The translations under genes and the position numbers were made by a program. Shown one piece after another: positions 19,334 through 62,893 of a stretch of DNA of 64,000 bases. Position 1 is the stretch's first letter, and every line of letters begins with the position of its first letter. Under the pieces are notes generated by a model, which worked only from the letters and a program-made list of their open reading frames with translations, ran no database searches and was not told the origin of the DNA. This stretch comes from a virus, in the IMG/VR virus record IMGVR_UViG_3300020125_000159, positions 1-64,000 of that record; one strand, given 5' to 3'.

Positions 19334-19376
19334 ACCTTTTAGTTCTCTACTTACAATATAAAAGATACTAACATGT

Positions 19377-19553
19377 ATGTCGTCTGAAGTCGAAAGATTA
19401 GAACGCGAAAATCAGATACTAAGGAACGCATTGTCTGAATTAGAAGCAGAAAAAGCCACACTAGCACATACATTTCTAGGCTCTTCACTCCGAATTAGAA
19501 TGTTGTTACAGCCAACAACGGGACAGGAAAACAATGCCAATCCTGCCCAGTGA
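19377..19553 (+). CDS. 58-aa coiled-coil peptide
   Basis: MSSEVERLERENQILRNALSELE...; late motif 38 nt upstream. Confidence 0.6.
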   Translation: MSSEVERLERENQILRNALSELEAEKATLAHTFLGSSLRIRMLLQPTTGQENNANPAQ

Positions 19554-20049
19554 CGTTCTATACTATCTGAGTGGAGGAATAAGCAATACAGACCCTAATC
19601 TGTCGTTAGGGGGTGCAATAAGCTCAACACAATTCACAGATGATATGATGCACAATATGTTCGCAGATGTTACAGGAACTGAGACGACGACAGGAAGTAC
19701 GAAATATCGCTGTATCTATATTAAAAATAATCATGCAACGTTGACAATGGGGGCTGTAAGCTTCTTTATTAATACCGAGGCTTCTTCTCCAGACAACACA
19801 ATTAGGATAGGAGTAGGAACCTCTGCACTCAATGGGGTCGAACAGACAATAGCAGACGAGAACACTGCGCCTATAGGTGTGGCGTTTAGCGCCCCGACAA
19901 CTGCTGGCACTGGCCTTAGTATTCCCAACATTCCAGCTAACGAAACATTTGCGTTGTGGTTCCAGAGAATAGTAAATCCTTCAGTGAGTCGTGACTACTT
20001 TGGTAATACGTTTGTGTGGGAGATAAACTTTCAGTCTAGTTCGGTTTAG
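19534..20049 (+). CDS. Virion structural protein, YYLSGG..SLGGAIS family (paralogue of 57815 and the 42319 N-domain)
   Basis: Shared motifs YRCxYxKN and WxxRxV. Confidence 0.7.
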   Translation: MPILPSDVLYYLSGGISNTDPNLSLGGAISSTQFTDDMMHNMFADVTGTETTTGSTKYRCIYIKNNHATLTMGAVSFFINTEASSPDNTIRIGVGTSALNGVEQTIADENTAPIGVAFSAPTTAGTGLSIPNIPANETFALWFQRIVNPSVSRDYFGNTFVWEINFQSSSV

Positions 20050-20085
20050 GTAAACTTTTTATGTTATGTATATGGAGTTACCCAT

Positions 20086-20745
20086 ATGTGGGGTAAGAAA
20101 AATAAAGAGGTCAATCCTCTGATTTGTTCAGCTAGCCCTCGTGACATCCCAGAATTCCTTGAAGCCGCTGCAAAACTACCTGCAGATAAACTCTTTGCGA
20201 AATACCATACCGAAAGAGAAGCATATCGTTTACTACGCAAATACTTCCTAGGCGCTAAGCAGTATACACATATGGTACTACTTAGCGATGACCTAATTGT
20301 CACCCCAAAAGAGTATGAAATGCTTTTGAATGATGTTAAGGAGTTTGACTATCCAGTAATCGCAGGCACATGCAATATACAATATGACACGCCTAACGAT
20401 TACGTTACTGGTAAAACCATACGTTATGGTAGATTTGTGGACTTATACAAAAAGGAAGAGTTATTCAAAGGCGATCCTATCAAGTTCTGTGAGTTTGACG
20501 GCTTTGCGCTTACATTCATAAGGAGAGATATTGTAAAGAAGATAGAATTTCATTCCAAGATGTATACTAGCACTGCATTCGATTATGCTTTTGCGCAAGA
20601 GTGTTTAGATCGAGGTATACCCCAACGCGTCGATACTCGTGTCAAGATGCTTCATTTGGCATGCAGGAAGGGCGCAGCCAAACAGGAAAATTGGGGCGTC
20701 GGCATCAAGCCGCCGACAATGATATTTGAGCGATACAATCCTTAA
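20086..20745 (+). CDS. GT-A-like glycosyltransferase (paralogue 3)
   Basis: YTHMVLLSDDL, AGTCN, FIRRDIV, DYAF. Confidence 0.7.
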   Translation: MWGKKNKEVNPLICSASPRDIPEFLEAAAKLPADKLFAKYHTEREAYRLLRKYFLGAKQYTHMVLLSDDLIVTPKEYEMLLNDVKEFDYPVIAGTCNIQYDTPNDYVTGKTIRYGRFVDLYKKEELFKGDPIKFCEFDGFALTFIRRDIVKKIEFHSKMYTSTAFDYAFAQECLDRGIPQRVDTRVKMLHLACRKGAAKQENWGVGIKPPTMIFERYNP

Positions 20746-20793
20746 CGTAATTTAGTTCTCTATTTCCATAGTTCACTTTCATTATCGTATAAT

Positions 20794-21453
20794 TTGACAT
20801 TCAGAGAACATACTATAGCAAGTGACGATTTAGCAGTTAAGGTCAAACGATATAACCCAGACAGTATTGGAAACAAAATCGGAAGATGGTGGGACGGTGT
20901 TAAGCATAAAACAGATCATGAACAACATTTCTTTCCAGAACCTAACTTTTCAGAGCATGTACGAGGTTGTGGATTTCTTACCGCAGAATGCAGGCGATGG
21001 GATGAAGAACTTGATGACTATACCGACTGGTTCTATCTGGCTAAAAATAAACACAATCTTTTAACACAGAATGGTAGAGACTATTTCCATGTTCAGTGTT
21101 ATGGAATAGCAGCTTCAATCTCAGCACAGACTGGAACAAACGGTATGAATTGGATAGGATTAACTAGTTCTACAAGCGCTCCACTTACAACTGATACTAT
21201 CTTAGTAGGCGAAATCACTACGAGCGGTCTTACACGAACGTTAGGAACTGTGGCTCACACGCTTTCTGCGACTACAACCACTGTGAGTAATACTTTCACC
21301 GCTACTGGTACGTTAACCAATGTTCAAGCATCCGCCCTCTTCAATTCTAACTCAGGAGGAGCTAACATTATATCACATGAAGCAACCTTTACGCCTACGA
21401 CGCTTAATAATAATGACCAGCTCGCGATTACGTGGACACTTACATTAAGTTAA
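20794..21453 (+). CDS. Minor tail protein (collar/fibre-anchor-like)
   Basis: NLLTQNGR..DT.L.GEI...GL.R pattern; distant paralogue of 46034. Confidence 0.6.
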   Translation: MTFREHTIASDDLAVKVKRYNPDSIGNKIGRWWDGVKHKTDHEQHFFPEPNFSEHVRGCGFLTAECRRWDEELDDYTDWFYLAKNKHNLLTQNGRDYFHVQCYGIAASISAQTGTNGMNWIGLTSSTSAPLTTDTILVGEITTSGLTRTLGTVAHTLSATTTTVSNTFTATGTLTNVQASALFNSNSGGANIISHEATFTPTTLNNNDQLAITWTLTLS

Positions 21454-21517
21454 GCCTTAACTGATAACCTTAGGCTAACAATAGCCTATTTATTAGAGGC
21501 CGACTTTCCTCTTATTT

Positions 21518-22120
21518 ATGAAAGAACGTTGGTCAACAAAAAAATATTTTATCAATCCTCAACATTATATTAATTTAAAATGCGTTAAATGTGAGAAGCA
21601 ATTTACTAGGAAGAAGGGATATCATGAAATGTGTATTAGCAGAAGCAAAGGAAGAGGTCCATTCTGTTCTCCCAAATGTGCGTTAACTGGTAGAGTAGTT
21701 TCTGATACTGAAAGACAAAAGATTTCCGAATCTCAGAAATATATATCATTTCAAAATAGAGGTAGAAAAGGTCATCCAGTATCTCAGGAGACGAGAGATA
21801 AAATCAGGATGTCGAAGATAGGAATATCAAGTAAGACTGATTGGAATATAATCGCAACTGACGCAAGAAATCGTGGAGTATCTAAATATGTAGTAATGAG
21901 AGCGCCAATTCCAGATTATATTTTTGTTCAGAATGGTAGACTGGTTGCTGTAGAAATAGAAAAAGAGCAATGGGAAACTGGTATCAGATCAAAAATGAAT
22001 GAGTATGAGGGATATCATAGCAAATGGGATAAAGTTATTATTGTTTGGTACACTCCTGACAATATCAAAAGAAAAGAATGGACTTCACATAATGGTAGTT
22101 GGAATCTAGTTACCTCCTAG
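21518..22120 (+). CDS. Free-standing homing-endonuclease-like gene (Zn finger + NUMOD3 + PD-(D/E)XK)
   Basis: CVKC..FCSPKC; SQETRDKIRMSK; PDY...VEIEK. Confidence 0.7.
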   Translation: MKERWSTKKYFINPQHYINLKCVKCEKQFTRKKGYHEMCISRSKGRGPFCSPKCALTGRVVSDTERQKISESQKYISFQNRGRKGHPVSQETRDKIRMSKIGISSKTDWNIIATDARNRGVSKYVVMRAPIPDYIFVQNGRLVAVEIEKEQWETGIRSKMNEYEGYHSKWDKVIIVWYTPDNIKRKEWTSHNGSWNLVTS

Positions 22121-22164
22121 ACGGTTAGTTCTCTCTTTTCTTTTTCATTTAATTTATTTCATTA

Positions 22165-29233: not shown

Positions 29234-29277
29234 TTGTTTAGTTCTTTACTTTAGTCTTTAAGTAAAGATATAGTGAT

Positions 29278-38378: not shown

Positions 38379-38413
38379 TAATTAAATAAAAAGTTAAAAA
38401 GATAAAGAGAGAA

Positions 38414-39673
38414 CTAATCCTCTAGGTTCTGATATATTTCGTCGTCTTTGAATACATCGTCGTTTACGTTTGTGCTTGCCCGATGCTCCTCACCCATCAA
38501 CTTCTTTGTTGGATCAATACTTCGGATTGATTGGAATTTCACGTCATAGTCCTGTAGGTTATCTGATCTGAACACCGTCAAAGGACCGCCGAAGACTATC
38601 GGAGGACTACCTGATTTGCTTGGAGGAATGTTGCAGTTACCAATAGAGCCTCGCGGTCCCCATTGGTCATGGTCTACCATCGAATGTGTTTTCTTCCATA
38701 CATTGTTTCCATTCTCATCTGTCCAATGCTCCAGTTGCACTGAGCCGTCTGGTAAGTTGTATACGATTGTCTTGATTCCGAACCAAGACCCTAACTTGAA
38801 GTTATATGCGCTGTTGTTGTTGACACCTGAGATATCTGTACTGTATCCTGTGGTATGATATAAGTCTTTTTCATATTTCTGACGCGCTAAACCATTAGAA
38901 CCTTTATTGCAGTAGATATTCGCATGATAATTGTCCGAACAACCTAATGCGCATCCACATGGTCCGACACTAGTACTACTTGTTGTGCTTCTCTGTCCAC
39001 GCATGACATGTTCTATATGCGCCTCTCCATTTGATGAGCCACTTCCTACTTGATTGATTCTGTAGTAACTAGTCATTTCGATATTCTTCCAGTCCATTGA
39101 ATCTTGCATGAATCCTTGTTGTGCACATTTTGTAAAGTCGGTGCAAAGCTTGCTCTGATTGAATCCCCCATCTTGTGTGATTGCACCTCTAATCTCAATC
39201 TGTCCTTTGATCTTGAACGAACCGTCTCCGTTGGCAATGTATTTTGGTTTGTAACTATTGCTTGCCTCTGGATTATTGCCACGTGGGTCAGAGGATGGGT
39301 CGTTGGTCATGAAGTAATTAGAGCCTGGTCCATCTCCGTAGATTTTGGTAACACCGAATTGGTCTACATTACCTGGAGTCGGGGTAGGAGTTGGTGTTGG
39401 AGTAGGAGTAGGAACTGGCGTAGGAGTCGGCACTGGAGTTGGTGTCGGAGTAGGGGTAGGGGTTGGCGCGGGTACTGGAGTCGGACTAGTTTTTAAAATT
39501 TGTAAAATTTGATTTGCAATATCTGTTAACTTAGATATGGCTGCTAAAACTGCTGCCTCATCAGGTTTTTTTGGTGGCTTTGGTTTTGGCTTGCCGTGCT
39601 TAGCGAGAAATTCGTCGTCGGTGAGGTTTACTAAATCGTTTTCCTCACTTATTAATTGATCATCTATTGACAT
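38414..39673 (-). CDS. PT-linker plus ConA-like (DxFGV..IY...GGP) domain protein
   Basis: Paralogous to the domains in 33954. Confidence 0.8.
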   Translation of the reverse strand: MSIDDQLISEENDLVNLTDDEFLAKHGKPKPKPPKKPDEAAVLAAISKLTDIANQILQILKTSPTPVPAPTPTPTPTPTPVPTPTPVPTPTPTPTPTPTPGNVDQFGVTKIYGDGPGSNYFMTNDPSSDPRGNNPEASNSYKPKYIANGDGSFKIKGQIEIRGAITQDGGFNQSKLCTDFTKCAQQGFMQDSMDWKNIEMTSYYRINQVGSGSSNGEAHIEHVMRGQRSTTSSTSVGPCGCALGCSDNYHANIYCNKGSNGLARQKYEKDLYHTTGYSTDISGVNNNSAYNFKLGSWFGIKTIVYNLPDGSVQLEHWTDENGNNVWKKTHSMVDHDQWGPRGSIGNCNIPPSKSGSPPIVFGGPLTVFRSDNLQDYDVKFQSIRSIDPTKKLMGEEHRASTNVNDDVFKDDEIYQNLED

Positions 39674-41899: not shown

Positions 41900-41968
41900 A
41901 TAAGAAAGAGACTGTGAAAATGATATAGAGAAGTAAGGATTATATCACTTGATACATAATATAACCGT

Positions 41969-45001: not shown

Positions 45002-45037
45002 TAATAATTTATTGTCTGTTTTTTATAAAGATAGGAA

Positions 45038-46030
45038 CTAAGCGCTAATCAATGAAGCGCCTGCTGTTGCAACTGCTCCAAAAGCTATACTGCTAGTAGT
45101 AATCATATTTGTATTAAGATTAGTAACTTCTGCCTGTGTCAGAACTTTCTCTCTGTAGTAACGAAAGTCAGCCATATTTCCCATAAAGAATCCGTCATTA
45201 ACTGCATTGCTTCCGACATACATATTCGTCCTAACATTTGGAAAAGTCGAATCAGTTGGAGTATCAACTATAAGTTTGCCATTAGCGAACATGTCTAATG
45301 CATTAACATATGTCGGATGGACACCATTACTTACATTATAAGTCATGACTACCCAATTCCATGTATTTAATATGAGTGGTGTTGTAGTAGTTACAGAGCT
45401 ATGACTAACTCCTCCACGATAAATCCATGAATGAATAAAGCCGTTAGTATCTATAAATAAAGCCCACATATCGTTAGGGCCATCAATCTTCTCAGCTATG
45501 AATCTTTTTGCTCCTGTGGGAGTGGCAGCAAATGTGGTCGGATAGATAAGTGCAGCTACTGAGAATCCAGTTGTGGTTCCTAGCATCTGAATATTTGTAT
45601 GATCAGCGATTTCAATAGCCTGACTTGTGCCGTCGAAATTCATTGCTATAGTACCAGCAGCTCCGTAGCCTTTGTCTGGACCAATTGCAGCTGTAGGCGT
45701 CTGCCCCAGAATAGTTCCTGAATTGCCTTGAAATGATGCATCTCTTACCACTTTTCCCCATGCGTCGAACCTATACCAGCATGTCAATGTTTTCAGGTCA
45801 GGTTCAAAAGGTATTTTAAATACTGTAGTTTTTGGTTTAGAGCTAGCGAAGCCTTGTTCCTTATACTGATTTATTGAGTTTGTAACCTTGATATAATTCT
45901 TGGTATCTCCAGTTTGTAGTTGTAGTGTTTGAGCTTCGAATTGTGCTAGTCTCTCAGATAGAAGTTTGTAACGCGCAGCTAGTGGGTCTAACGAGTACTT
46001 CCTAATTTGATAAATAAAATTTGAACTCAA
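45038..46030 (-). CDS. LamG-like tail protein
   Basis: AMNFDGTS, WNWVVMTY, FMGNMADFRYY. Confidence 0.8.
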   Translation of the reverse strand: MSSNFIYQIRKYSLDPLAARYKLLSERLAQFEAQTLQLQTGDTKNYIKVTNSINQYKEQGFASSKPKTTVFKIPFEPDLKTLTCWYRFDAWGKVVRDASFQGNSGTILGQTPTAAIGPDKGYGAAGTIAMNFDGTSQAIEIADHTNIQMLGTTTGFSVAALIYPTTFAATPTGAKRFIAEKIDGPNDMWALFIDTNGFIHSWIYRGGVSHSSVTTTTPLILNTWNWVVMTYNVSNGVHPTYVNALDMFANGKLIVDTPTDSTFPNVRTNMYVGSNAVNDGFFMGNMADFRYYREKVLTQAEVTNLNTNMITTSSIAFGAVATAGASLISA

Positions 46031-46672: not shown

Positions 46673-46703
46673 GACATTAGGATTTAAAAATAAGAAAAGG
46701 GAA

Positions 46704-48539
46704 CTAACTAATAGAATCAACTAAAAAGTCGACATACTGCACACATAGCAACGACACATACGAAGCGCCATGTGGGTGAGATGGTCTAATTCCTCCACCA
46801 CTTGGCAGGGAGCTTCCCATCTGCCCACTAGATGTACCAACAGCGGTAAAATTATAATCCACCTGCTGTATCTCTACTGCAATTGATTTAGGCGGTGCTA
46901 TTCCTGATAGTGTGTCAACTAGATCAACTAACTGACCTGGTAACCATACAAAATTATTTGGAATAGTAACATATGACATTCCGAACTGTCGTATAGGTTT
47001 AGCAAGAGATGCAAGTATACTAGAAGCATATGTCTGCATAGTCTGATTATCGGTGATAAAACTCACATCATGTACTGCTTCTACCAGTCCGTATTTGTTT
47101 ATGGATAGGGGGTCGCTTGCCTCTGTTAATAGTCTCAAGTTTTCAAAGAATCCATGGGTATAGACTGGACCAGTGCTAGATACGGACCAGCCACCTGTGT
47201 CAGTCTTAAGTGGAAACTGATTTCTGGCCTCAGTGCTTGGATCTAGGACAGCTTGTCTTGTTGCGCTAAATCTGTTTTGAGTTGTAGTGTCCCCGTCATT
47301 ATGCCAGCGCACAGTATTAGATTCGTCAGTGCCCTTTGCGTAAAGGACGATCCAATAAGCTACATTAGGCTGTAAGTTCTGGACATACCACTTATAATTA
47401 AAATCGAATACTGACGTAGGAGTAGGCGGTATACTAGATAATGGAATCTGGAAGTTCATCAGGATAGCACCTGTTGGAAATCCTGTACCTCTATCTTGTA
47501 CAAGTGCGCCTGTTACGGCTTGCACCCCAGCAGCACCCCCAGTTCCAACTGTGGATAAAGTTAGCGCTAGATTCTTTAGCTGTGCACTACCAGGGATTAT
47601 TTGTTGTGCAATGTCCTTATTGAATAAAGAGGTATAGCCAAGGTTTGTACTACCAGCGACATTTGCCTTTGGTGCGATTGTACCACCTTTTAACCATAAA
47701 CGATTAGCGAATCCATCAGCCTGGTCACATGAGTCAACATATGAATACGGACCAGTCCAATATGCCGTCTTGTCGGCTAGGTCATTATCGCCCATCCCAT
47801 TCTTAATAGTAATTCCTGAATGTATTGCTGTGGGATATCTGAAAAATATATCATCGTTTTCTATTCCCCATATCGCGCCACTATAATCTGCTATCTTGTT
47901 TAGAGCTGCAGAGGCTTCAACTAATGGTTGTTGTATTCCAGGAATAAAATTATTCACTCGTGGGTCTATACCATTCTCTGTGAACTGTCCTTGAGAGATT
48001 AGAGTAGGACTTGCACCGAGTGGTAACTGTGACGTGCCTTCAAAAACAGTCTTAAATAAATTATATGCTACCATAGACTGGTCAGTAGTTGCACTGGCTG
48101 AATTATCTACTGAGCTGCGAGTAGCAAACTTTTGAAAATCAATTATGCGTTCATTACAAACAATCTGGCTTCCATATCCTTGAAATATATAATATAGTAT
48201 TCCAGTATCATCTCGATTAACCGTAACCTTCTTACAATATCCATGCAGAATATCTTGATAACTTGTTGCTGTCTTGCCTGCCGATATTATTACACGATTG
48301 CCTAGCCCTACCTGCGTCCTATCTATCTCTTGCTCATTGTCCTCAACGAATATCGAAAATGTTCCAGCTTGGTTGAGTGCCACTGACACTATTACCTGAA
48401 TTACCTTTATGCTATTCGCAGTAGGATTGAATGAGTCATAAGTAAGTAATGTAGTGGTGTTATCATTTGATAACATGGTAACTTTGACTCTGAGTTGTTG
48501 TATGTATGAGGGGTCAGAGGTAGTAAGTCCTGCACTCAT
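46704..48539 (-). CDS. Baseplate hub / Tal-like protein
   Basis: Follows tape measure; ASDPLSINKYG, PGQLV motifs. Confidence 0.7.
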   Translation of the reverse strand: MSAGLTTSDPSYIQQLRVKVTMLSNDNTTTLLTYDSFNPTANSIKVIQVIVSVALNQAGTFSIFVEDNEQEIDRTQVGLGNRVIISAGKTATSYQDILHGYCKKVTVNRDDTGILYYIFQGYGSQIVCNERIIDFQKFATRSSVDNSASATTDQSMVAYNLFKTVFEGTSQLPLGASPTLISQGQFTENGIDPRVNNFIPGIQQPLVEASAALNKIADYSGAIWGIENDDIFFRYPTAIHSGITIKNGMGDNDLADKTAYWTGPYSYVDSCDQADGFANRLWLKGGTIAPKANVAGSTNLGYTSLFNKDIAQQIIPGSAQLKNLALTLSTVGTGGAAGVQAVTGALVQDRGTGFPTGAILMNFQIPLSSIPPTPTSVFDFNYKWYVQNLQPNVAYWIVLYAKGTDESNTVRWHNDGDTTTQNRFSATRQAVLDPSTEARNQFPLKTDTGGWSVSSTGPVYTHGFFENLRLLTEASDPLSINKYGLVEAVHDVSFITDNQTMQTYASSILASLAKPIRQFGMSYVTIPNNFVWLPGQLVDLVDTLSGIAPPKSIAVEIQQVDYNFTAVGTSSGQMGSSLPSGGGIRPSHPHGASYVSLLCVQYVDFLVDSIS

Positions 48540-52117: not shown

Positions 52118-52169
52118 ATCGCGATATAGTTCTACCCCTTAGTTATATGATAGGAACTAAATTCCTACC

Positions 52170-53255: not shown

Positions 53256-54200
53256 TTAGCCGCTAACAGCGACCTGTTGTGCAACTCCCGAAAATGTTAT
53301 AGTCTTGATTTTGTTTGCAGTTGGTGAGTCTGGGGTGTTGAATTTATCTAGGTATAGATTGGTGAAGTTTAGGGTGACTGGACCAACTGAATTGAGTTGG
53401 TATGACGCGGTTCTTGCAGTTAGCGCAATTGCGTCTGAGATAGTGTCGAATGGTCCGCCTGTTCCATCAGCTGACACATCAGTGTATATAATATCAAAGT
53501 CTACTGTGATATCTCTATTAGTCGGTTCGAGGTATTTAATTACAGATTCGCCGAGTGGTTTTATTTTGTCGAGGTTATGAGTTACACCAGCCTTGAATGT
53601 TATAGTATCATATGACTTTCCATTAATTGTAAGTGGATGTGAGCCTCCTGTTAATCCTGACCACGGTGGTACAGTGGTAGAGTTTGGAGCACAATACGAT
53701 GGAGTACCTGCACCGCCTGCACCTACGAATGTAGTAGCTGGAGTATTCAGCACAGAAGCAACCATAGTTTGAGTTACTTCTACTTTTGTCTCTGTAACTG
53801 AAATCTCTATTTTTTCTGTACGAGCGCCTTTTACAAGATAGAAGTATTCAGTAGCGTTAACAGTCTGAGACCAGAGAATAGATAATGATCTGTATATGTT
53901 GCCGACACCTGTCGCGCCAGTGCTGCTAAAGTATTCTGTCCCATATTTCATGAACAAACTGTTGAAAGGCTGATACTTTAGGACGATGTTATAAAGTTGG
54001 CCTGATTTTACTTCTTGGTAAATATCCCTGGAGCCTAACTGTCTATTTTTAATCGATTGAATATCTATGCTGAGTGCAAGATCAGTGATAGCTCCACAGC
54101 TTGTAAAAACTGGTGAAGTTGGTGTGGTTGCGTATGTTGCCTCTTCCACGAACTGTGGGATTCTCGTAAATTTATAAGCACCAGTTGGTTGATACGACAT
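53256..54200 (-). CDS. Major tail tube protein
   Basis: EEATYATTP N-terminal motif, position and size. Confidence 0.8.
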   Translation of the reverse strand: MSYQPTGAYKFTRIPQFVEEATYATTPTSPVFTSCGAITDLALSIDIQSIKNRQLGSRDIYQEVKSGQLYNIVLKYQPFNSLFMKYGTEYFSSTGATGVGNIYRSLSILWSQTVNATEYFYLVKGARTEKIEISVTETKVEVTQTMVASVLNTPATTFVGAGGAGTPSYCAPNSTTVPPWSGLTGGSHPLTINGKSYDTITFKAGVTHNLDKIKPLGESVIKYLEPTNRDITVDFDIIYTDVSADGTGGPFDTISDAIALTARTASYQLNSVGPVTLNFTNLYLDKFNTPDSPTANKIKTITFSGVAQQVAVSG

Positions 54201-54367
54201 AACTAGTTAGTCTCCGATTTGATTGTAAACACTTTAAATTACTCGATATGTAAGTTAGAGGTAACGAAAATAGAGAACTAATGACTTGGGAAAAGAAGAA
54301 TGTTACAGCACCGATAGTCGATATACCTAAATACCTCGTCTACCTTATCTACCTTAGGTATAAAGAA

Positions 54368-54475
54368 ATGACAAAATCGGTAAAGGTAGACGACGAGGAT
54401 TACTCTTACGTCGTTAAACAAGCGAAATATGGCGAATCATTTGCCAAAGTCCTAAAGAGGCTGTTAAAGCGATGA
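54368..54475 (+). CDS. 35-aa RHH/antitoxin-like regulator
   Basis: KSVKVDDEDY...GESFAKVLKRLL; TACCT repeats upstream. Confidence 0.65.
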   Translation: MTKSVKVDDEDYSYVVKQAKYGESFAKVLKRLLKR

Positions 54476-54786
54476 ATAGGGGATTAATCATATTTGGAAT
54501 GATATGTACTATAATTGGTACGATGATTGGATTCTATTTGATATTCAGTTCGCCCATGCCTAGATTCATATTGTTTGGAGAAGCTCATGCGCAGACATCC
54601 AATCTCGACGAATTATCGGGTTATATGAACACATTATCTGCATTTACTAGCGCTTGTAATAATGCCCTTGATAATCAGGCAGTTCAGGCCGCATGTGCAC
54701 AGATATTCAATGAAGAACATGATTTACTAAAACCATTCATGGATCAGAATAGAGATCTGATGTCTAGGGTGATACTTGGACCTTAG
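54472..54786 (+). CDS. Membrane-anchored/secreted small protein
   Basis: N-terminal TM, AHA cleavage-like site, Cys pair. Confidence 0.65.
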   Translation: MNRGLIIFGMICTIIGTMIGFYLIFSSPMPRFILFGEAHAQTSNLDELSGYMNTLSAFTSACNNALDNQAVQAACAQIFNEEHDLLKPFMDQNRDLMSRVILGP

Positions 54787-54788
54787 AA

Positions 54789-54959
54789 TTGTTCGACAAG
54801 AAGCCTCAAGCGGTTCAGGTAAAGTGTGGAAGTTGTAGAAAGAAATTTCTACCTGAAGCCATTAAGGTTATGACTACCATTAGAGGCTTCATGGTCTACG
54901 CATGTCCCAATTGCCATACTGTGTTCAACGTACAGTCTAACTCAGTGATTGCTAAGTAG
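54789..54959 (+). CDS. 56-aa Zn-ribbon protein
   Basis: CGSC...CPNC; hand-translated. Confidence 0.55.
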   Translation: MFDKKPQAVQVKCGSCRKKFLPEAIKVMTTIRGFMVYACPNCHTVFNVQSNSVIAK

Positions 54960-55440
54960 TCGTCGCTATGAAGTAGAGAATCTCTATTTGCACAACTGCC
55001 ATCCAAAGGTCTGTAACTGCATCCCTAACAGGAACATCAACAGTTCGAATGACACGCATATAGCCACCATTCGGACCTATCGTTGGCACATTCCTTCTAT
55101 TTATTTGAATTATTGACTCTAATGAACGTTTTATATCGTCAAGTTCTATAGGTCTAGTTCTAGTATTTTTGCGAACAAAGATATGAGCGTCTACAAAGTC
55201 TGTTGCCGTTTCATACTGCCATCCTATAACTAAAGGACTCCTATCTATCGATCTATCTAGAAAGTGAATCTGATATGAACCGTAACCATCCCACCATAAA
55301 TTTCTAAATTTAATTTGTGTTGATTTTACTAGTGCGGTAGCATCAGGCCAGTTAGCCATTGCCCAATTCTTTAACGTTAATGACATGGGCTCTGTTAGGT
55401 TGCCCCCTCCTGACTTGCCTGGGACGACTACACTACTCAT
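54952..55440 (-). CDS. Tail terminator-like protein
   Basis: Size, position upstream of the tube gene, C-terminal beta strand. Confidence 0.6.
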   Translation of the reverse strand: MSSVVVPGKSGGGNLTEPMSLTLKNWAMANWPDATALVKSTQIKFRNLWWDGYGSYQIHFLDRSIDRSPLVIGWQYETATDFVDAHIFVRKNTRTRPIELDDIKRSLESIIQINRRNVPTIGPNGGYMRVIRTVDVPVRDAVTDLWMAVVQIEILYFIATTT

Positions 55441-55476
55441 ATTCTATATAAGACGAAGAAAGAAGTAAAGAAGTAA

Positions 55477-57684
55477 TTAACGAAGACGTCTTGAAAGTCC
55501 TAACATTTTACTGACTATTGAATTTACATTATTCAATCGTGCAGTATGTCGTCCTGGAGGCCTAATCCTTCTATGGTCAGAGATTATTCCTTCTATTTGT
55601 ACTGTATCATTCATAGAGAATCTGAATGTCATTTGTCCACGACCTACAGAGTCTGAGATACGGATTTGGGCTAATACCTTTTGTGCATGACGGAACTCTA
55701 ACGGTTCAATCATGTTTATACTTGGTCTAGGTAATCTATGTTGTGATTCAGTAATACCTACAGTATCGCCTATGAAACGTCTAACTCGTCTACTTATAGA
55801 TTCGGTAATATTCATTTTTGTCGTAGTGTAAATCTTTGTTGTGGGAGTAAGGTCAGTCCAAATACTTCTAAATATTTTCTTTATTCGTGTGGCAATGTCA
55901 GATATTGATATACCTGTTTCTATTATGATTCTGGGTATAATCCTTGTTTTTGATAAAGCACTAGATATTGATATAGTCTGTGTTGATAGTGTTATTTTGT
56001 ATAGTTTTCGTGTTAGTATTGACTCTAATGACGCAATGGTTTCTGTCAGACGTCTATTATACTTACCTAGTTTTGTTAATAATTCAGATATCGTTATAGT
56101 CTGCGTAGAGAGTTTTGGTTTAGCATTTCTTAATTGAGAATCCGTTATCGATATAGTGTCCGAGATTGACCTGGTTTTTAGTGGTCCACTACCAGCTAAT
56201 GCGTATAGGAGAGTCCGTATTGATGTTATTCTAGCTTTTAGTCCATACTTCAGAGTTCTGACTGTGGATAATAATCTCTTTCTTAGATAATATTTGAGTG
56301 TCCTTTGTGTCCCAGCAATTCTTTTTCTAAGATAATATTGTAACGTTCTTTGTGCTACAATCCTAGATTTTAAAGAATATTTTACAGTTCGCTGTGTTGA
56401 TAGTAACCTAGCTTTTAATCCATATTTGACGGTTCTAGCAGTAGAGGCTAGTCTTTTCTTTAATGAATATTGTAATGTGCGTGCAGTACTTGCTAATCTC
56501 TTCTTTAGACTATATTGTAACGTTCTTTGTGTTGTTAAAAGTCTTAATTTTAATGCATATTTGACTGTCCTCTGCGTTGTAAGTAGTCTCTTTTTTAATG
56601 CGTATTTTATTGTTCTCTGTGTTGATAACAGTCTAGCCTTTAAACCATATTTGATTGTTCTAAGTCCTACTCTTCTAGCTTTGAGTCCGTAGATTAGAGT
56701 TCTTTGGGTACTTGCTATTCTTTTCTTTAGGGCATATTGTATTGTGCGCTGTGTTGATAACAGCCTTTTATGTAGATAGTATTTTACTGTTCTAACTCCT
56801 GCAATTCTTGATTTTAAAGCATAGTTTACGGTTCGTGTGGTACTAGCCAGTCGTTTTTTTAATGCATAATTTACAGTCCGCGCAGTACTGGCTAATCTCT
56901 TATGAAGAAAATATTTTACCGTTCTAGCAGTACTGGCTAATCTGGTTTTTAATCCATAATTTATAGTTCTAGCAGTAGATAAAAGTCTCTTCTTTAACCC
57001 ATATTTTATAGTTCTTGCAGTACTGTTTAGGTTTGAAACTGTAGTGAATACTAATGTATCTGTTGCTGCGCTAATGAATGAAGCACATGTTGTTGCACTT
57101 GCTTCGGTAGTACCGTCAAAATAGAATGTATCAGTGAATGCAGTTGAGGCTCCCTGAGTTGTCTTAAATATTATCTCAAATACTATTACGTCACCGACCT
57201 GAGTTGTTACTGCGGAACCTGAAAATGTCCCGCTTAGTGCTACCTCTGAAGTACTAGCCTCTGAGAGTGTTATTCCAGTTGCACTATTAAGTATATTTCC
57301 AACTTTTGAACCGCCAGCACTTGGACGCCACACATAACATGTTACGTTAGCGGTTGCACTTGTAGTTGTAGGAAAGTTTGCACTTGCAGAACTTTCCTTC
57401 GCGGCAAAAGAAAAAGTCCATGTCTGTGCGCTTATAGACGTAGAAGATAAGGGAGGACTTACAAACTTAGTAAAGTAATAATTATTTGCACTAGTATTTG
57501 CGAGAGAGGTGACTGCTATACTTGTCTGTAATGTACCAATAGTGCTATTCATCAGACGGTTTACTGTTTGGGCATCACCGCCAGTACTAGTAACTATAGT
57601 TAGTGCAGACTGTGTGGCTTGAGGAAGTGTTCCGTGTCCTACTAATGTGTTACTTGAGGCATGAAGATATAATTTTGTCGCTAT
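55477..57684 (-). CDS. Virion protein: beta N-domain plus ~19 cationic 14-15-aa repeats
   Basis: STARTVKYxLKxRL repeats; frame open upstream to ATA 57684. Confidence 0.75.
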   Translation of the reverse strand: MATKLYLHASSNTLVGHGTLPQATQSALTIVTSTGGDAQTVNRLMNSTIGTLQTSIAVTSLANTSANNYYFTKFVSPPLSSTSISAQTWTFSFAAKESSASANFPTTTSATANVTCYVWRPSAGGSKVGNILNSATGITLSEASTSEVALSGTFSGSAVTTQVGDVIVFEIIFKTTQGASTAFTDTFYFDGTTEASATTCASFISAATDTLVFTTVSNLNSTARTIKYGLKKRLLSTARTINYGLKTRLASTARTVKYFLHKRLASTARTVNYALKKRLASTTRTVNYALKSRIAGVRTVKYYLHKRLLSTQRTIQYALKKRIASTQRTLIYGLKARRVGLRTIKYGLKARLLSTQRTIKYALKKRLLTTQRTVKYALKLRLLTTQRTLQYSLKKRLASTARTLQYSLKKRLASTARTVKYGLKARLLSTQRTVKYSLKSRIVAQRTLQYYLRKRIAGTQRTLKYYLRKRLLSTVRTLKYGLKARITSIRTLLYALAGSGPLKTRSISDTISITDSQLRNAKPKLSTQTITISELLTKLGKYNRRLTETIASLESILTRKLYKITLSTQTISISSALSKTRIIPRIIIETGISISDIATRIKKIFRSIWTDLTPTTKIYTTTKMNITESISRRVRRFIGDTVGITESQHRLPRPSINMIEPLEFRHAQKVLAQIRISDSVGRGQMTFRFSMNDTVQIEGIISDHRRIRPPGRHTARLNNVNSIVSKMLGLSRRLR

Positions 57685-57814
57685 GTCTGCTCAGCCTAAA
57701 AATAGAGAAAGAAGTAGAGACTTAGGAAGTAACTAGTTTATTCCAAGGTGCTTGCCCTTTTTTATGTCCCATTACATAGGATAGAGGTATTGCGAATATA
57801 TAAATTATGCGGAC

Positions 57815-58327
57815 TCAGGCAGCTGTGTCTCCATCCGTTTCAAACTTAAAGGTATTCGCATCAACTGGAGTAGCTAATGATGCATTAATCACCCTTTTGA
57901 ACCATACTGCTTTTGTTGCGCTTGCTACCATATCACCTATAACTAGACCAGTAGCGTAGGTAGTTGGCGCTGAAAATGCTGACAAGCCTGTCGGTGCAGT
58001 CGTAATGTTTGTTATAGTTTGTTCAGTAGCATTGATTGCTGACGAACCCAAAGCCATAGTAATCTCATCTTCTGTTGACGTAGTTATCTGAGTAACATAA
58101 ATCTGAGCTGAAAAGAATGTTTGTGCTGAAGTATTTTTTACATAGAGACAAAGATAGTCTGTAGAACCTGCCAATGTTTCTGTCCCTGCTGCATTTGGGA
58201 AAAGATTTGCCGCACTGTTATCCACTAACTCTGTTGTGCTAATTGCACCACCTAGAGCTAATGCGGGGTTTGTGTTAGCTGCACCACCACTTAAATAATA
58301 TTTTATATCCGCTGCTAAAACTGCCAT
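57815..58327 (-). CDS. Virion structural protein, YYLSGG family
   Basis: Paralogue of 19534. Confidence 0.7.
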   Translation of the reverse strand: MAVLAADIKYYLSGGAANTNPALALGGAISTTELVDNSAANLFPNAAGTETLAGSTDYLCLYVKNTSAQTFFSAQIYVTQITTSTEDEITMALGSSAINATEQTITNITTAPTGLSAFSAPTTYATGLVIGDMVASATKAVWFKRVINASLATPVDANTFKFETDGDTAA

Positions 58328-58366
58328 TTATTACAGGGAATAAAAAGTCTGAAGAAAAGTAGAGAA

Positions 58367-58804
58367 CTAACCTATTACATCTTCATCCGAACCAAACGCC
58401 GCGTCTCTATTGCTAGAGTCAGCAGCACCAGGTAGACTACGGTATATAGGGGCGTTAGGATTCAACGGATATGTTCTATAAGGTGCTGAAAGAACGAATA
58501 ACGACTCTGGGCTTGATTCGCGTATCGAGAAGCAGATATCCATCGCCTTACTGTAATGAGCATCACCCTTTCCATTCTCATCTTCGAAATGATCCCTGAT
58601 CCATGATGAAGCGAAATATTCACTACTCTCTTTGATAAGCGGATAGATAGGATCGGTTATTTGATAGCCTGAATGACCAGTCTCTGATTCTACTCTAGCA
58701 TCACCATACTGAACGGCTTGTTGAAAGTCGGCATCACTAATATCTGCGGTATCAATATTTCCAGCTAATTTTCTTGCTACAACATAATCTCCATAAGGTG
58801 GCAT
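58367..58804 (-). CDS. Head-tail adaptor-like protein
   Basis: YGD....RKL...ISDAD..Q.....D..V pattern. Confidence 0.65.
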   Translation of the reverse strand: MPPYGDYVVARKLAGNIDTADISDADFQQAVQYGDARVESETGHSGYQITDPIYPLIKESSEYFASSWIRDHFEDENGKGDAHYSKAMDICFSIRESSPESLFVLSAPYRTYPLNPNAPIYRSLPGAADSSNRDAAFGSDEDVIG

Positions 58805-58807
58805 ATT

Positions 58808-58981
58808 TTATATCAGTGTTTCTAATAGTGCGTCGTTATAATATGAATTAAAACCAGTCGGGTATATCTTGGTCGTTATCTCCTTACCACAAACAACACA
58901 GTAAAAGATGATTTTGGTTTCTGATACCTTGACTGCGTCACAGACTCTGCCACATTTATGAACAAAACTATTTGGTATCAT
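58808..58981 (-). CDS. 57-aa Zn-finger peptide
   Basis: HKCG...YCVVCG; ATGA-coupled. Confidence 0.5.
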   Translation of the reverse strand: MIPNSFVHKCGRVCDAVKVSETKIIFYCVVCGKEITTKIYPTGFNSYYNDALLETLI

Positions 58982-59181
58982 ATCATTTTCTTTTTTTGTT
59001 CGGTCGTGAACTTTGCGTTATCGTTCTCAGGAAATATTTTATTGGTAGGAGTATAATCGCATGTACCAGTTACGGTACGACACCATGAACAAAGTATCTT
59101 GTATTGAGTATTAGACGTGCGCACCCATGTCTTTGTGCTAGATGCGCAGTCGTGAGGAAATTCTACTCGCTTAGATACCAA
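58978..59181 (-). CDS. Small Zn-binding protein
   Basis: HDC...CSWC; late motif upstream. Confidence 0.55.
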   Translation of the reverse strand: MVSKRVEFPHDCASSTKTWVRTSNTQYKILCSWCRTVTGTCDYTPTNKIFPENDNAKFTTEQKKKMI

Positions 59182-59214
59182 TAAAACATTAAAAATGAAA
59201 GAAGGGGAAGGGAA

Positions 59215-59583
59215 CTATTTCTTTGATGGTACTCCAACATTTCCTGTTAGAGCGTTAAGTTCATCTAATATCTTTTTCAATGCGGCTTTGTCTGCTTCTG
59301 TATTTGCCACAACGAGGTTGATATCGGTTCCGCTTGCTTCTAGCTTAGCCTTTAGTTCAGGTGATAAGTCAGTTGCTGCTTGTACCAATCCGATAAACTT
59401 GTCATGGTTCGCTACAATAGCGTCATGTGCTTCATTAAGGTATTTTGTAATCGTGTCTATCTTAGCTGTATTCCATCCGTGATTTCGCATCTGTTTGGCT
59501 ATTACGCCGATAATCGCGCCTCCGAATGCTGCTATAATTCCAATATTGTCATATAATATCGTAAGTGAGTCTGCTACTACCAT
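59215..59583 (-). CDS. Single-TM protein (holin-like candidate)
   Basis: IGIIAAFGGAIIGVIA followed by a helical tail. Confidence 0.55.
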   Translation of the reverse strand: MVVADSLTILYDNIGIIAAFGGAIIGVIAKQMRNHGWNTAKIDTITKYLNEAHDAIVANHDKFIGLVQAATDLSPELKAKLEASGTDINLVVANTEADKAALKKILDELNALTGNVGVPSKK

Positions 59584-59643
59584 TATAAAACAAGAAGATA
59601 TGAAGAAAGAATTAGGAACTAATGTTTGGTAAGGTTGCCCAGA

Positions 59644-59964
59644 TCATTTGGTCTCATGGGTTTCGTTGCCTAGAACCTCTTTCAGTAAGTGTTGGGTATT
59701 TAATTGTACTCCTGGCAAGTCTTGAAGCTCTTTGATTAATGTCTGCCGTTGATTGTTTGATAGATTGCCTTGTGCGTTTAGTTGTTCTTGACTGAGACTG
59801 TGTAGTGAATCTAGTTTATCATTTATCTGTTTGACTACTATCTGTCCTTGTTGTTGAGCTAGTTGTTGTTGTTGAATACTGGTATAAGTCTGATACGCGT
59901 ATATAGTGCCCACCATGACTATAAGAACGGATAATAATGTAATGATAAAATGCGTTGGTTCCAA
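59644..59964 (-). CDS. Single-TM + Gln-rich coiled-coil protein
   Basis: N-terminal TM. Confidence 0.65.
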   Translation of the reverse strand: MEPTHFIITLLSVLIVMVGTIYAYQTYTSIQQQQLAQQQGQIVVKQINDKLDSLHSLSQEQLNAQGNLSNNQRQTLIKELQDLPGVQLNTQHLLKEVLGNETHETK

Positions 59965-60012
59965 TTTTAATTACTTCTTGTAAACTAAATTAATGAATAA
60001 AGAAGTAATATA

Positions 60013-60558
60013 TTGACTGAAGATTTCATTGTAGCCGCTTATCCTGTTATCTCAATTCTAATAGGAGTAGGGACTTTAGGTGGTTTTATTTATAAAATGG
60101 GCGCTTGGATTAATAAGAAGGCTGAAACTAAAGCTGCTATTCTTAAAGAGGTTACTGAGAAGAAAGCAGATGAACTTAGAAAATATGCTGAAGAAGTGGC
60201 TAAAGAAGTCAGAGATATTAATGAAAAACAGATAGCGGATCTTCAGAAAAGATTAGATGGTTTAGAAGACAAGATAGACAAAGTTTTCCAGAGGGCTGAC
60301 CTTGTAAATGGTAATGTTTCGAACATCAGAACAGACATAGCAGACCTACAAGAGGATTTGCTTGAACTATATTCTGCGGATGATATAGAGTATGAACAGA
60401 ATGAAGATAGTGGTAGACATATAGAAGTCGACAAAGGCAGAGGACGTGATTCAGTATCTTCAAGAAAGAACAGAAAGCGTGTTGACCTGAATAGAAGATT
60501 AAAAAGGAGAAAGATAGAATCGGATAGAATTGAACAGTCTGAAAGGGAGAAACGATAG
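60013..60558 (+). CDS. Single-TM + coiled-coil protein with basic tail
   Basis: N-terminal TM; late motif 42 nt upstream. Confidence 0.7.
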   Translation: MTEDFIVAAYPVISILIGVGTLGGFIYKMGAWINKKAETKAAILKEVTEKKADELRKYAEEVAKEVRDINEKQIADLQKRLDGLEDKIDKVFQRADLVNGNVSNIRTDIADLQEDLLELYSADDIEYEQNEDSGRHIEVDKGRGRDSVSSRKNRKRVDLNRRLKRRKIESDRIEQSEREKR

Positions 60559-60561
60559 GTT

Positions 60562-60765
60562 TTATCCTACCTCAATATGTAGTTCTACTCGTTGATACCC
60601 ATTAGTCAAAATAATTCTGTCTAGGTCACGCGATCCAGTCCGACCTACTCCCATTCTTTCTTTCAGTCCTTCTCGGAACACATTATTAAGCGAATCATAT
60701 TCTGCTTGTGACATCTTTATGACGTCAATCTGCTCTTTTATCTCCTTTATTTTATACTCGGTCAT
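60562..60765 (-). CDS. Hypothetical protein
   Basis: Late motif upstream. Confidence 0.55.
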   Translation of the reverse strand: MTEYKIKEIKEQIDVIKMSQAEYDSLNNVFREGLKERMGVGRTGSRDLDRIILTNGYQRVELHIEVG

Positions 60766-60807
60766 GTATAATGATATAGAATAACAAAAAGTGAAGGTAA
60801 GAACTAA

Positions 60808-61134
60808 TTACTTGCTCATATGTGTTAGGTTGTTCAGTATGTCTAACTGAATTTGGCGGTTTATGAGTATATCTTTGTAGTTCTGCGCTATCAATTTATC
60901 AGTGTGATCTGTCTGGTTGTCTATATGCAATGATTGATTTCCTATTATATTCAGTAGGTGGTGATTGTCAAGGGCAACTTCTTGTAGATTTGTTACCTGA
61001 TCTTTAACTTCAGTATCTATTTTTGAGACTGTGTTATTAATACTGAACATAGTGAGAGATAGTAATCCTGCTAGCATACCCAGAATTATGAAATCAAGTA
61101 TGTATAATCTCCACATATCATTCAGTCCTCGCAT
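60808..61134 (-). CDS. Single-TM + coiled-coil protein
   Basis: N-terminal TM. Confidence 0.65.
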   Translation of the reverse strand: MRGLNDMWRLYILDFIILGMLAGLLSLTMFSINNTVSKIDTEVKDQVTNLQEVALDNHHLLNIIGNQSLHIDNQTDHTDKLIAQNYKDILINRQIQLDILNNLTHMSK

Positions 61135-61402
61135 ATCTATGGTCTAACTCTACATTTTTTAGTCTTAAGTCAAGTATGTCGCATAGTCTTAATGCATCAT
61201 TTGATTTTTGATACAAATCCTTAACATCAGCTCTAATCTCCTTTATATCTTCTTTTACCTCCTTAACCTCATATCCAGTGAGTCCTTGCTTAGCATCATT
61301 CCTTCCTTCCTTCTTTAGAAAGAATACTAATGCAGTGAGGGCAGGAACTATAAACGTCAATAAATAAGGCCAATATTCAATCTGCATGATAAAATCAAAC
61401 AA
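61118..61402 (-). CDS. Single-TM + coiled-coil protein (holin/XhlA-like architecture)
   Basis: TM followed by heptads. Confidence 0.6.
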   Translation of the reverse strand: MFDFIMQIEYWPYLLTFIVPALTALVFFLKKEGRNDAKQGLTGYEVKEVKEDIKEIRADVKDLYQKSNDALRLCDILDLRLKNVELDHRYARTE

Positions 61403-61445
61403 CTCACTAGAGATATAGTGGAAAAAAAGTTAGGATAAGAACTAA

Positions 61446-61538
61446 TTATTTTGTCCTTCTAAGGTAACGAATCTCCTGTAAGATTATCGAGCCTGTAATT
61501 ATGGACATCCACACAACCCACGCCCAGTCTGGCAGCAA
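61446..61538 (-). CDS. 30-aa TM peptide
   Basis: MLPDWAWVVWMSIITGSIILQEIRYLRRTK; hand-translated. Confidence 0.4.
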   Translation of the reverse strand: MLPDWAWVVWMSIITGSIILQEIRYLRRTK

Positions 61539-61539
61539 T

Positions 61540-61722
61540 TTATTTTATATTTAGTTTTTCTTTAAGTATTTTCTCTATGACTCTTGAACGTGCACCAGTA
61601 GTTAGTCCGAATTCCTTGAATGCACGTTCGTCTACTGCGTCTAAAAGTCTTAGAGACATTGACACATTGACAGGAGTCTTCCGATCGCTAGGGTTCACTA
61701 GTTCCTTCTGTTTGCTAACCAT
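61540..61722 (-). CDS. Ribbon-helix-helix protein
   Basis: VNVSMSLRLLDAVDE...RSRVIEKIL. Confidence 0.75.
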   Translation of the reverse strand: MVSKQKELVNPSDRKTPVNVSMSLRLLDAVDERAFKEFGLTTGARSRVIEKILKEKLNIK

Positions 61723-61859
61723 CTAGTAATTTCACCTCTGTAATCTTATCTATCATTGACCTCAATCTCACCATCTCTTCAGTTGCAATGTCTAACTTAA
61801 TTTTGGAAATTATAGACTGCACCACTATCTGGGATTTAGGGTCAAGGCCAATTAGGTCG

Positions 61860-62084
61860 TCAGCCAATTCCATTATTTCCCTTTTTCTCTGGTTCTTTTG
61901 ATTCTATTGGTGTCTGTGATGATTCGGGGTAAGGTGGTATAAGTCCACGAATTATTTTTGTAGCGTCTTCTGGATCTCGGAATTCTATCATATGACTGCC
62001 CTTTTCATAATAAACGGTTCCGATTGCAAAAGGTTTCTTGGTCCTTTCTAGCTTAATTGTGAATCCTAAATGATATTCAGTCAT
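61860..62084 (-). CDS. Hypothetical protein
   Basis: SD GAGG; coupled ORF. Confidence 0.5.
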   Translation of the reverse strand: MTEYHLGFTIKLERTKKPFAIGTVYYEKGSHMIEFRDPEDATKIIRGLIPPYPESSQTPIESKEPEKKGNNGIG

Positions 62085-62227
62085 ACTTATTCCTCTTTTA
62101 TTGCGTCACGCCCACTTCCGCAGTCACAGCCTGCGTTACCCCACATTATACCGCCAGAGCCGTCATGATACGCGACCTTAGGGAGTTCTTTGTATTTTTG
62201 GCCGCAGTTACTACAAACTAATCCCAA

Positions 62228-62839
62228 TTATTCTTTCACTGGTCGTTTGCCTTTAACTTCAATCTCTGGGTTGGGAGCACCAGGTTTTACACCAGTCTTA
62301 CCTAATGTAACTAGTTCGTCGAATGATAGGTTACGAAAGTCTTCATACTCAAAACCAGCATACATTCTCCCACCTGGAGTTTCCACGTAGAAAGTAGTTG
62401 CTGCGTCAATCTTGCCCTCTTCAACTAATTTGTCTAGAAGCTTTGGGTCATATTCTATAGGGTAAATTGTCTCATGTCTTGCTATACCTACACATACAGT
62501 CTGACCTGTCAATTCGTCGAACTGGTATTGTCCTATTGGTATGTTATACTTGCCATTCACTACGAACTTTTCTATTTCGTTGTCTCTGTGGTCGTGGCCG
62601 TGATATTCTTCATAGAAGTATACTGCCTCATTTGTATTTCTGAAACTACCTTTTCGTACTCTGTGTATTTGTTGAATGTGGACTTTTGTATTTTCTCCGT
62701 CTACATTCTTCTGGTCAAATATTGCATGGACTTGGTGTTCTGATGGGGGGATATAGTCTAGATTAGGATTGTTGTTATAAAATTGCTGTACTTTTTCATG
62801 TGCCTGCTTAAAGAAAGCAGCGTGTTCTGGTCTTACCAT
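62228..62839 (-). CDS. Hypothetical late protein
   Basis: 203 aa; late motif 41 nt upstream. Confidence 0.7.
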   Translation of the reverse strand: MVRPEHAAFFKQAHEKVQQFYNNNPNLDYIPPSEHQVHAIFDQKNVDGENTKVHIQQIHRVRKGSFRNTNEAVYFYEEYHGHDHRDNEIEKFVVNGKYNIPIGQYQFDELTGQTVCVGIARHETIYPIEYDPKLLDKLVEEGKIDAATTFYVETPGGRMYAGFEYEDFRNLSFDELVTLGKTGVKPGAPNPEIEVKGKRPVKE

Positions 62840-62893
62840 TTATATAACATGTTTGGCAAATAGTACTCATAGAGAACTAAATTGGAACACTAT

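Follow-up and report, generated by a model that had tools for sequence, protein, structure and literature searches.

Late genes of bacteriophages can be read from a promoter class of their own through a switched specificity factor, as in T4 (TATAAATA, with gp55/gp33) and in the sigma cascade of SPO1, and haloarchaea have networks of alternative TFB and TBP proteins. For archaeal viruses, to our knowledge, little is described about the timing of gene expression, and we know of none with a dedicated late-promoter class. Here we describe a short word, TTA(G/C)TTCYY with a T-rich patch after it, which stands in front of the virion genes in the virus record IMGVR_UViG_3300020125_000159. The record is a single linear contig of 92,695 bp (completeness ~68% by CheckV), and its first 64 kb is the stretch of DNA that we analysed, called the window below. 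We consider it likely that the virion ('late') genes of this tailed virus of Nitrososphaerales, the ammonia-oxidising archaea of soil, have the word as their lineage-specific core promoter and that their mRNAs carry a short leader or none.

The closest described systems are the archaeal core promoters of leaderless genes, which consist of a TFB-recognition element (BRE) and a TATA box and are known from Sulfolobus among others. Such promoters have been mapped in Haloferax by dRNA-seq (differential RNA sequencing; PMC4983044) and in Thermococcus (PMC5316973, PMC4247193), and our element resembles them in being two-part and orientation-specific and in lying ~40-25 nt before start codons that have no Shine-Dalgarno sequence; relatives of this virus even carry a canonical TTTATA in the expected register. 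The archaeal consensus varies between groups, being TTWT plus CGAAA in haloarchaea, and can be as weak as TTWT (PMC4983044). Our element differs from these promoters in its BRE-position half, which is pyrimidine-rich (TTAGTTCTC) and not A- or purine-rich, and in its TATA half, which is degenerate in this virus; TBP and TFB binding is putative here. It is also found only before virion genes, and only in one virus lineage, whereas the other genes of the genome use ordinary boxes. With the late promoters of T4 and SPO1 it shares the form of a short lineage-specific word before each late unit that is kept across very divergent relatives and is unlike the early host-type promoters. Those systems, however, are bacterial and sigma-based with a known phage-encoded reader, whereas here the host is archaeal and no sigma, TFB or TBP gene was found in the contig.

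The word is strongly enriched and tied to gene starts. In the window there are 27 copies of TTASTTCYY, where dinucleotide-preserving shuffles give 5.9 +/- 2.2 (maximum 11). The whole contig has 34 copies, 25 of them located 28-50 nt upstream of the start of an open reading frame (ORF) on the same strand, a zone that makes up 1.8% of the strand positions (binomial P 6e-37). De novo counting of 7-mers gave TTAGTTC as the most enriched one upstream of ORFs, present in 19 of the 141 60-nt upstream windows (P 5e-18). The initial annotation of this DNA had paired 23 copies with start codons and all 23 pairs were located, with the caveats that the copy at 59218 has one mismatch (ATAGTTCCC) and that the gene at 57684 starts with ATA. 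The position weight matrix reads TTAGTTCTCT[A/C]TTT and then a G-poor, T/C-rich spacer, which gives a word of 10-15 bases when the T-rich patch after TTAGTTCTCT is included. Five further copies lie outside the window, at 65349, 67971, 68894 and 69210 upstream of starts and at 72657 before the portal gene. The stretches 1-19 kb and 73-92 kb lack the late word apart from an orphan at 5785. We found no paper describing the word in the literature.

Between 19.4 and 72.6 kb the word heads almost every transcription unit, but only 27-28 of the 60 ORFs in this region carry it. The initial claim that it precedes most structural genes has to be qualified in this way. The motif-headed units hold 1-5 genes each and about half of them have a single gene, which makes the description of late transcription as mostly monocistronic about half right.

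The spacing is tight. The 5' end of the motif lies 35-48 nt before the start codon (median 40), with the motif at -40 to -31 and the T-rich patch at -30 to -27, in keeping with the proposed location at or near the BRE position. The word marks the starts of genes and not their ends, since it is present at 7 divergent junctions and within 150 nt of none of the 8 convergent 3' ends. The divergent region 59965-60012, only 48 nt long, holds nothing except two inverted copies, each ~42-44 nt from its own gene. Of the copies in the upstream zone 17 are in the sense orientation and 4 are antisense, and we infer that the latter are opposing promoters at divergent junctions; among the relatives described below the corresponding numbers are 38 and 2 for those found through the portal and 54 and 6 for those found through the terminase. 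The 20 nt upstream of the motif are not conserved at all (information content about 0), and these short gaps offer no candidate promoter element besides the motif.

Translation signals of the motif-led genes are different as well. Shine-Dalgarno-like words precede 1 of the 28 motif-led genes versus 40 of the 113 other ORFs (Fisher P 4e-4). In the major tail gene, which is spaced 81 nt from its motif, a GGAG Shine-Dalgarno sequence stands within the extra leader, and this fits a motif that fixes the start of the RNA and not the start codon. The N-termini of motif-led proteins are conserved from codon 2 on, e.g. between the genes at 22165 and 24341, and between the gene at 20794 and its homologue at 11168 of L003, a related virus contig. 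Most of the TTG starts have an A before them (ATTG), and a 1-nt leader could begin with this purine; leaders of 1-5 nt may be the rule here. For the conserved late protein of 691 amino acids (57552-57693, minus strand), the L003 homologue begins MTKLYFH, compared with (I)ATKLYLH here, and the reading frame continues without a stop ahead of the first ATG (57552); translation most likely starts at ATA 57684 and not at ATG 57552.

The virus has relatives in which the element can be compared. The contig encodes an integrase, ParB, a tape-measure-like protein, beta-helix and LamG fibres, portal, MuF and TerL, based on Pfam and PHROGs matches of its ORFs. Its TerL, major tail, baseplate, fibre and tape-measure proteins have homologues with 31-39% identity in Pro-Nvie1, a provirus of Nitrososphaera viennensis, and at the BLAST level the two share only structural genes and TerL. 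A multicopper oxidase of the virus has a counterpart with 41% identity in the N. viennensis host DNA that flanks the provirus in the Pro-Nvie1 record. Together the Pro-Nvie1 homologies and the multicopper oxidase match point to a soil Nitrososphaerales archaeon as the probable host, an assignment that we regard as sound. The oxidase (contig 78653-79879, minus strand; L001 16653-17879) has two domains, is 62% identical to one in L003, and its gene has a TAGAGGTAT leader instead of the late motif. MCO1 is reported to be specific to ammonia-oxidising archaea and to be present in their soil viruses (PMC11849493, PMC9859776), and the viral gene appears to be a host-derived auxiliary gene.

In ~40 soil contigs related through the portal and in Pro-Nvie1 the word is kept at equal spacing. 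These portal-anchored metagenome contigs have 24-79% portal identity and a GC content of 0.33-0.54. Among them and Pro-Nvie1, 45 of the 164 matches to the core TA[GC]TTC[CT][CT] are located 25-50 nt upstream of a same-strand start, compared with 3 expected, and in 36 unrelated IMG/VR contigs this holds for 1 of 227 core matches. The control set comes from an exact 15-mer scan of IMG/VR that gave 38 contigs, all of which except L003 are chance holders without positional bias. L003 has the motif at equal spacing before the homologue of the gene at 20794, among others. In Pro-Nvie1, TA(G/A)TTCTCT stands ~35 nt before at least ten structural genes, its TAG often being the stop codon of the upstream gene. 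Some portal relatives do not have the word, including a prophage in a metagenome-assembled genome (MAG) labelled 'Chloroflexia'. In a 1.16-Mb contig with this label (L004; CAWIOR010000015.1, 128361-149562) we observed a portal homologue with 39% identity, neighbouring late-gene homologues and 0 motif copies at the locus.

A second set of relatives shows what may have been the downstream half of the element. Nearly all of the terminase-anchored IMG/VR contigs have 27-38% TerL identity, and their GC content is about 0.33-0.43. The upstream half recurs in them as (T)TA-N-TTCTC, any base being allowed at the fourth position, with 54 of 254 matches in the zone and a median spacing of 35 (interquartile range 34-36). 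The backwards word is not a valid control in this set, because CTCTTTAT is itself part of the extended motif. In 18 of the 41 unique copies TTTATA or TTTATT follows directly after the upstream half, starting at -30 to -25. In a leaderless archaeal gene this is the canonical place of the TATA box, so that TTANTTCTC falls exactly at the place of the BRE. In our genome CTTTAT or TTTTATA is kept in the TATA register at 27537, 38417, 39710, 45041, 68894 and 69210, and most copies have T/C-rich strings there, with T at +11 to +13 in 15-18 of 24 copies. Given the TTTATA after the same upstream half in the relatives and the CTTTAT or TTTTATA kept here, the T/C tract looks like a decayed TATA box. Transcription 'possibly independent of TBP', which had been suggested initially, is not supported by this comparison and is not the economical reading; the element looks like an otherwise ordinary archaeal promoter with an unusual BRE half.

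Our analysis suggests a two-part promoter, in which TTA(G/C)TTCTC would occupy the TFB-recognition position (about -40 to -32 from the start codon) and the T(A/C)TTT after it (about -31 to -27) would be the remnant of a TATA box. The first transcribed base would be that of the start codon or lie a few nucleotides ahead of it, giving mRNAs without a Shine-Dalgarno sequence, and ~28 such promoters would split the 53-kb virion region into its units of 1-5 genes. The other viral genes have A-rich sequence in front of their TATA boxes, to which the upstream half bears no resemblance, and the switch to the virion genes would therefore most likely go through a factor of different BRE specificity. This factor might be a host TFB paralogue or a viral protein that is too divergent to recognise, acting together with TBP and the host RNA polymerase.

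Several points weigh against this promoter reading. A TATA-like hexamer follows closely on the motif (+6 to +21) in only 1 of the 17 scored copies of this genome, for which the earlier description 'lacking an obvious TATA box' is fair; the use of TBP is suggested by comparison with the relatives. The pyrimidine-rich TTA(G/C)TTCTC at the BRE position does not match the purine- or A-rich BRE consensus. Where transcription starts, that the mRNAs are leaderless and that the genes are 'late' is inferred, in the last case from gene function; a look for RNA data sets containing 52000-61999 of this DNA gave none. The start codon is TTG in 12 of the 28 motif-led genes (for example 22165, 24341, 27573, 29278, 52117, 59964, 60013 and 61402) and ATA in one, which is unusual for strictly leaderless mRNAs; in Haloferax just 6% use GUG (PMC4983044). 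Two exact copies, 5785(+) and 69144(+), do not follow the pattern, the latter lying within a coding region. Finally, no candidate reader gene came out of the domain searches: TFIIB, TBP, sigma-70 region 2 and RNA polymerase (T7-type or multi-subunit) were not found in the 92.7-kb contig, which is only ~68% complete.

This last result comes from six-frame profile searches with PF00382, PF00352, PF04542, PF00940 and PF00623, none of which gave a match at E <= 1 (PF00940 was run without a positive control), and the search for TFB- or TBP-like genes that the initial annotation had proposed thus gave none in this contig. TFIIB and TBP matches were likewise absent from the L003 contig and from Pro-Nvie1. 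Pfam and PHROGs searches of 29 large and 82 small ORFs gave no transcription-factor family, and PDB sequence searches with two conserved late proteins of 859 and 410 amino acids gave no match. The hints amount to a SeqA_N/RHH (ribbon-helix-helix) match below the threshold, zinc ribbons and Sigma70_r4 at E 0.16. Single-sequence AlphaFold models of 2491-2763 and 54281-54475 are of low confidence (pLDDT 55 and 68). The ORF at 41969-42322 was considered as a reader and set aside as HNH-like. No regulator common to this virus and Pro-Nvie1 was found at the BLAST level.

The cis element persists in viruses that have 25-35% identity between their proteins, and this speaks for a reader that is conserved as well; either a host TFB paralogue or a conserved viral protein diverged beyond recognition would be a candidate. 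Nitrosopumilaceae genomes encode from 9-12 up to 21 TBP/TFB domains (PMC9239080), and alternative TFBs would therefore be available. The haloarchaeal TFB/TBP pairs and the multi-TFB Nitrososphaeria (PMC9239080) offer a plausible route to a class-specific BRE in a host clade reported to have many such domains, whereas the link of our word to a host TFB paralogue is only hypothetical. Thaumarchaeal integrative-conjugative elements carry their own TFIIB gene next to ParB (PMC6563490) and are thus a precedent in the host phylum for a mobile element with its own TFB. Our virus also has a ParB-like gene (2739-3983) after an ORF of 90 amino acids, but this ORF shows no TFIIB signal, its single-sequence AlphaFold model is all-helical and of low confidence, and we see no evidence for a TFB in it.

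A stronger form of the promoter reading would be a programme similar to a sigma switch, in which a dedicated factor, either a divergent viral TFB-like protein or a commandeered host TFB paralogue, reads the non-canonical BRE (TTANTTCTC) and redirects the host RNA polymerase to the ~28 virion-gene promoters. We offer this only tentatively, as a possibility that we would not yet favour. If true, no promoter-class switch would have been described in an archaeal virus before, and this one would be conserved in viruses ranging from those of soil Nitrososphaerales to the low-GC terminase relatives. For the promoter reading in general, what stands out is that the BRE position of an archaeal core promoter would be taken by an element specific to one virus lineage. 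The word gives a conserved sequence handle, with ~28 copies per genome, that is common to dozens of divergent viruses and to the provirus of the cultivable N. viennensis. For soil virus contigs with poor annotation it has a practical use, as it shows where virion-gene units lie and which start codons, TTG and ATA among them, are the true ones; it could further mark the host lineage of viruses that infect ammonia oxidisers.

Alternatively, a repressor or activator of the virus or of the host, for example of the RHH or winged helix-turn-helix (wHTH) type, could use the word as its operator, placed over a weak and unconserved core promoter, so that the virion genes are held off in lysogeny or early infection, or switched on. 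Archaeal regulators that bind over the BRE and TATA box are common, and the encoded integrase makes a lysogenic state plausible. The small operon 54281-54959 inside the late block encodes a weakly SeqA_N/RHH-like protein of 64 amino acids and a zinc-ribbon protein, and tandem or inverted motif pairs exist at 55476/55468, 59971/60008 and 69144/69210. Most copies, though, are single and unpaired, no second promoter-like signal is interleaved with the motif or found upstream of it, and the absence of a regulator shared with Pro-Nvie1 is a further point against an operator. The fixed orientation and the fixed TATA register in the relatives suit a core-promoter element better than the site of a dimer, and we consider an operator unlikely.

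We give even less credit to a signal at the RNA level, either an element of the 5' untranslated region or an endonuclease site at which long polycistronic late transcripts are cut into gene-sized mRNAs. Such a signal would be strand-specific, as the word is, and could explain its presence at nearly every junction between units, often 0-7 nt past the upstream stop codon and sometimes with its TAG as that stop codon (46707 here, and several in Pro-Nvie1). But at the 7 divergent junctions any promoter upstream of the motif must sit in the coding sequence of the opposite gene, where we see no conservation; the fixed register with a canonical TATA in the relatives has no explanation at the RNA level, and the region downstream has no conserved structure, just G depletion. 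Least probable of all is that the word and an oligo-T tract form a transcription terminator or insulator of the upstream gene: archaeal RNA polymerase does terminate at oligo-T, and a run of at least five T follows the word in 12 of 28 copies, more often at tandem (11/21) than at divergent junctions (1/7) though not significantly so (P 0.18), but convergent gene ends lack the motif and divergent starts have it, its spacing is tight to the downstream start and not to the upstream stop, and GC-richer relatives keep the word and lose the T tract, which may at most help to stop read-through as a side effect.

Table 1. Copies of the late word in the window, with the start codon that each precedes.
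Position	Strand	Element	Distance to start (nt)	Start	Context
19339..19348	+	TTAGTTCTCT	38	ATG 19377	First unit of the plus-strand late block; divergent from 19007-19333(-)
20752..20761	+	TTAGTTCTCT	42	TTG 20794	L003 homologue has the motif at equal spacing
22125..22134	+	TTAGTTCTCT	40	TTG 22165	Fibre-like protein, 700 amino acids
24298..24307	+	TTAGTTCTCT	43	TTG 24341	Beta-helix protein, 1063 amino acids
27537..27546	+	TTAGTTCTCT then CTTTAT	36	TTG 27573	Two-gene unit
29238..29247	+	TTAGTTCTTT	40	TTG 29278	Five-gene unit, end at 33957
38408..38417	-	TTAGTTCTCT then CTTTAT	39	ATG 38378	Protein of 1474 amino acids
39701..39710	-	TTAGTTCCCT	37	ATG 39673	
41927..41936	-	TTACTTCTCT	37	ATG 41899	Protein of 727 amino acids; divergent junction
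45032..45041	-	TTAGTTCCTA then TCTTTATAAAAAA	40	ATG 45001	Three-gene unit
46698..46707	-	TTAGTTCCCT	35	ATG 46672	TAG of the motif is the stop codon of the upstream gene 46704-48539
52151..52160	-	TTAGTTCCTA	43	TTG 52117	Tape-measure-like protein, 1192 amino acids
54272..54281	-	TTAGTTCTCT	81	ATG 54200	Homologue of the Pro-Nvie1 major tail protein; sole copy with a long leader and GGAG Shine-Dalgarno
55459..55476	-	Tandem pair TTACTTCTTTACTTCTTT	36 and 28	ATG 55440	
57723..57732	-	TTACTTCCTA	48	Probable ATA 57684	Protein of 691(+44) amino acids
58361..58370	-	TTAGTTCTCT	43	ATG 58327	
59209..59218	-	One-mismatch variant ATAGTTCCCT	37	TTG 59181	Three-gene unit
59613..59622	-	TTAGTTCCTA	39	ATG 59583	
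59971..60008	both	Two inverted copies of TTACTTCTT		TTG 60013 (+); TTG 59964 (-)	Plus copy at 59971, minus copy at 60008
60798..60807	-	TTAGTTCTTA	42	ATG 60765	
61436..61445	-	TTAGTTCTTA	43	TTG 61402	Two-gene unit
62871..62880	-	TTAGTTCTCT	41	ATG 62839	Four-gene unit
5785..5794	+	Orphan, exact TTAGTTCTCT			Early region, in a non-coding gap of 200 nt; no start of an ORF at 35-48 nt downstream

The orphan copy at 5785(+) has a GC-rich stretch (GGCGCGCGCC) after it; possible explanations are an orphan promoter, the promoter of a small RNA, or a chance occurrence. Outside the window, contig positions 69144-69210 (L001 7144-7210) hold two inverted exact copies of TTAGTTCTC around a 48-nt AT-rich stretch that contains TATATAATATATA. 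The minus copy of this pair serves the gene 68897-69169, and the plus copy lies within the first codons of the same gene, 68 nt from the next plus-strand start.

Non-virion genes, and genes inserted in the virion blocks, have W-rich TATA-like boxes at about -32 to -23 with A-rich sequence before them, e.g. at 2491, 18055, 19333(-), 20086, 21518, 41969 and 69212. This agrees with the ordinary TATA-like boxes that the initial annotation gave to early and inserted genes, with the late word confined to the virion-gene region; the comparison of W runs between the promoter classes is noisy and is used only qualitatively. Further non-late genes have longer leaders with the Shine-Dalgarno-like word TAGAGGTA(T). 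There are 16 copies of it in the contig, and 8 upstream windows have it; it stands 10-25 nt before non-late starts such as those of TerL and the multicopper oxidase, at 2727, 14761 and 54256 in the window and at contig positions 72703, 74861 and 88022 (+) and 79895 and 84023 (-). This word is conserved beyond what a plain Shine-Dalgarno sequence (GAGGT) needs.

Two small loci are embedded in the late blocks. The Cys-rich ORF 41969-42322 (+) lies antisense inside a late block with its own TATA-like box and is conserved in four relatives; protein-atlas features and the structure point to a putative HNH homing-endonuclease-like product. The other locus, 54281-54959 (+), is a three-gene mini-operon inside the minus-strand late block, encoding proteins of 64 (RHH/SeqA_N-like), 104 and 56 (zinc-ribbon) amino acids, and is a possible regulator locus. 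The match of its 64-amino-acid protein (54281-54475) to SeqA_N/RHH has an E value of 1.7e-4, below the Pfam cut-off, and the final base of the late motif on the opposite strand falls within its ATG at 54281.

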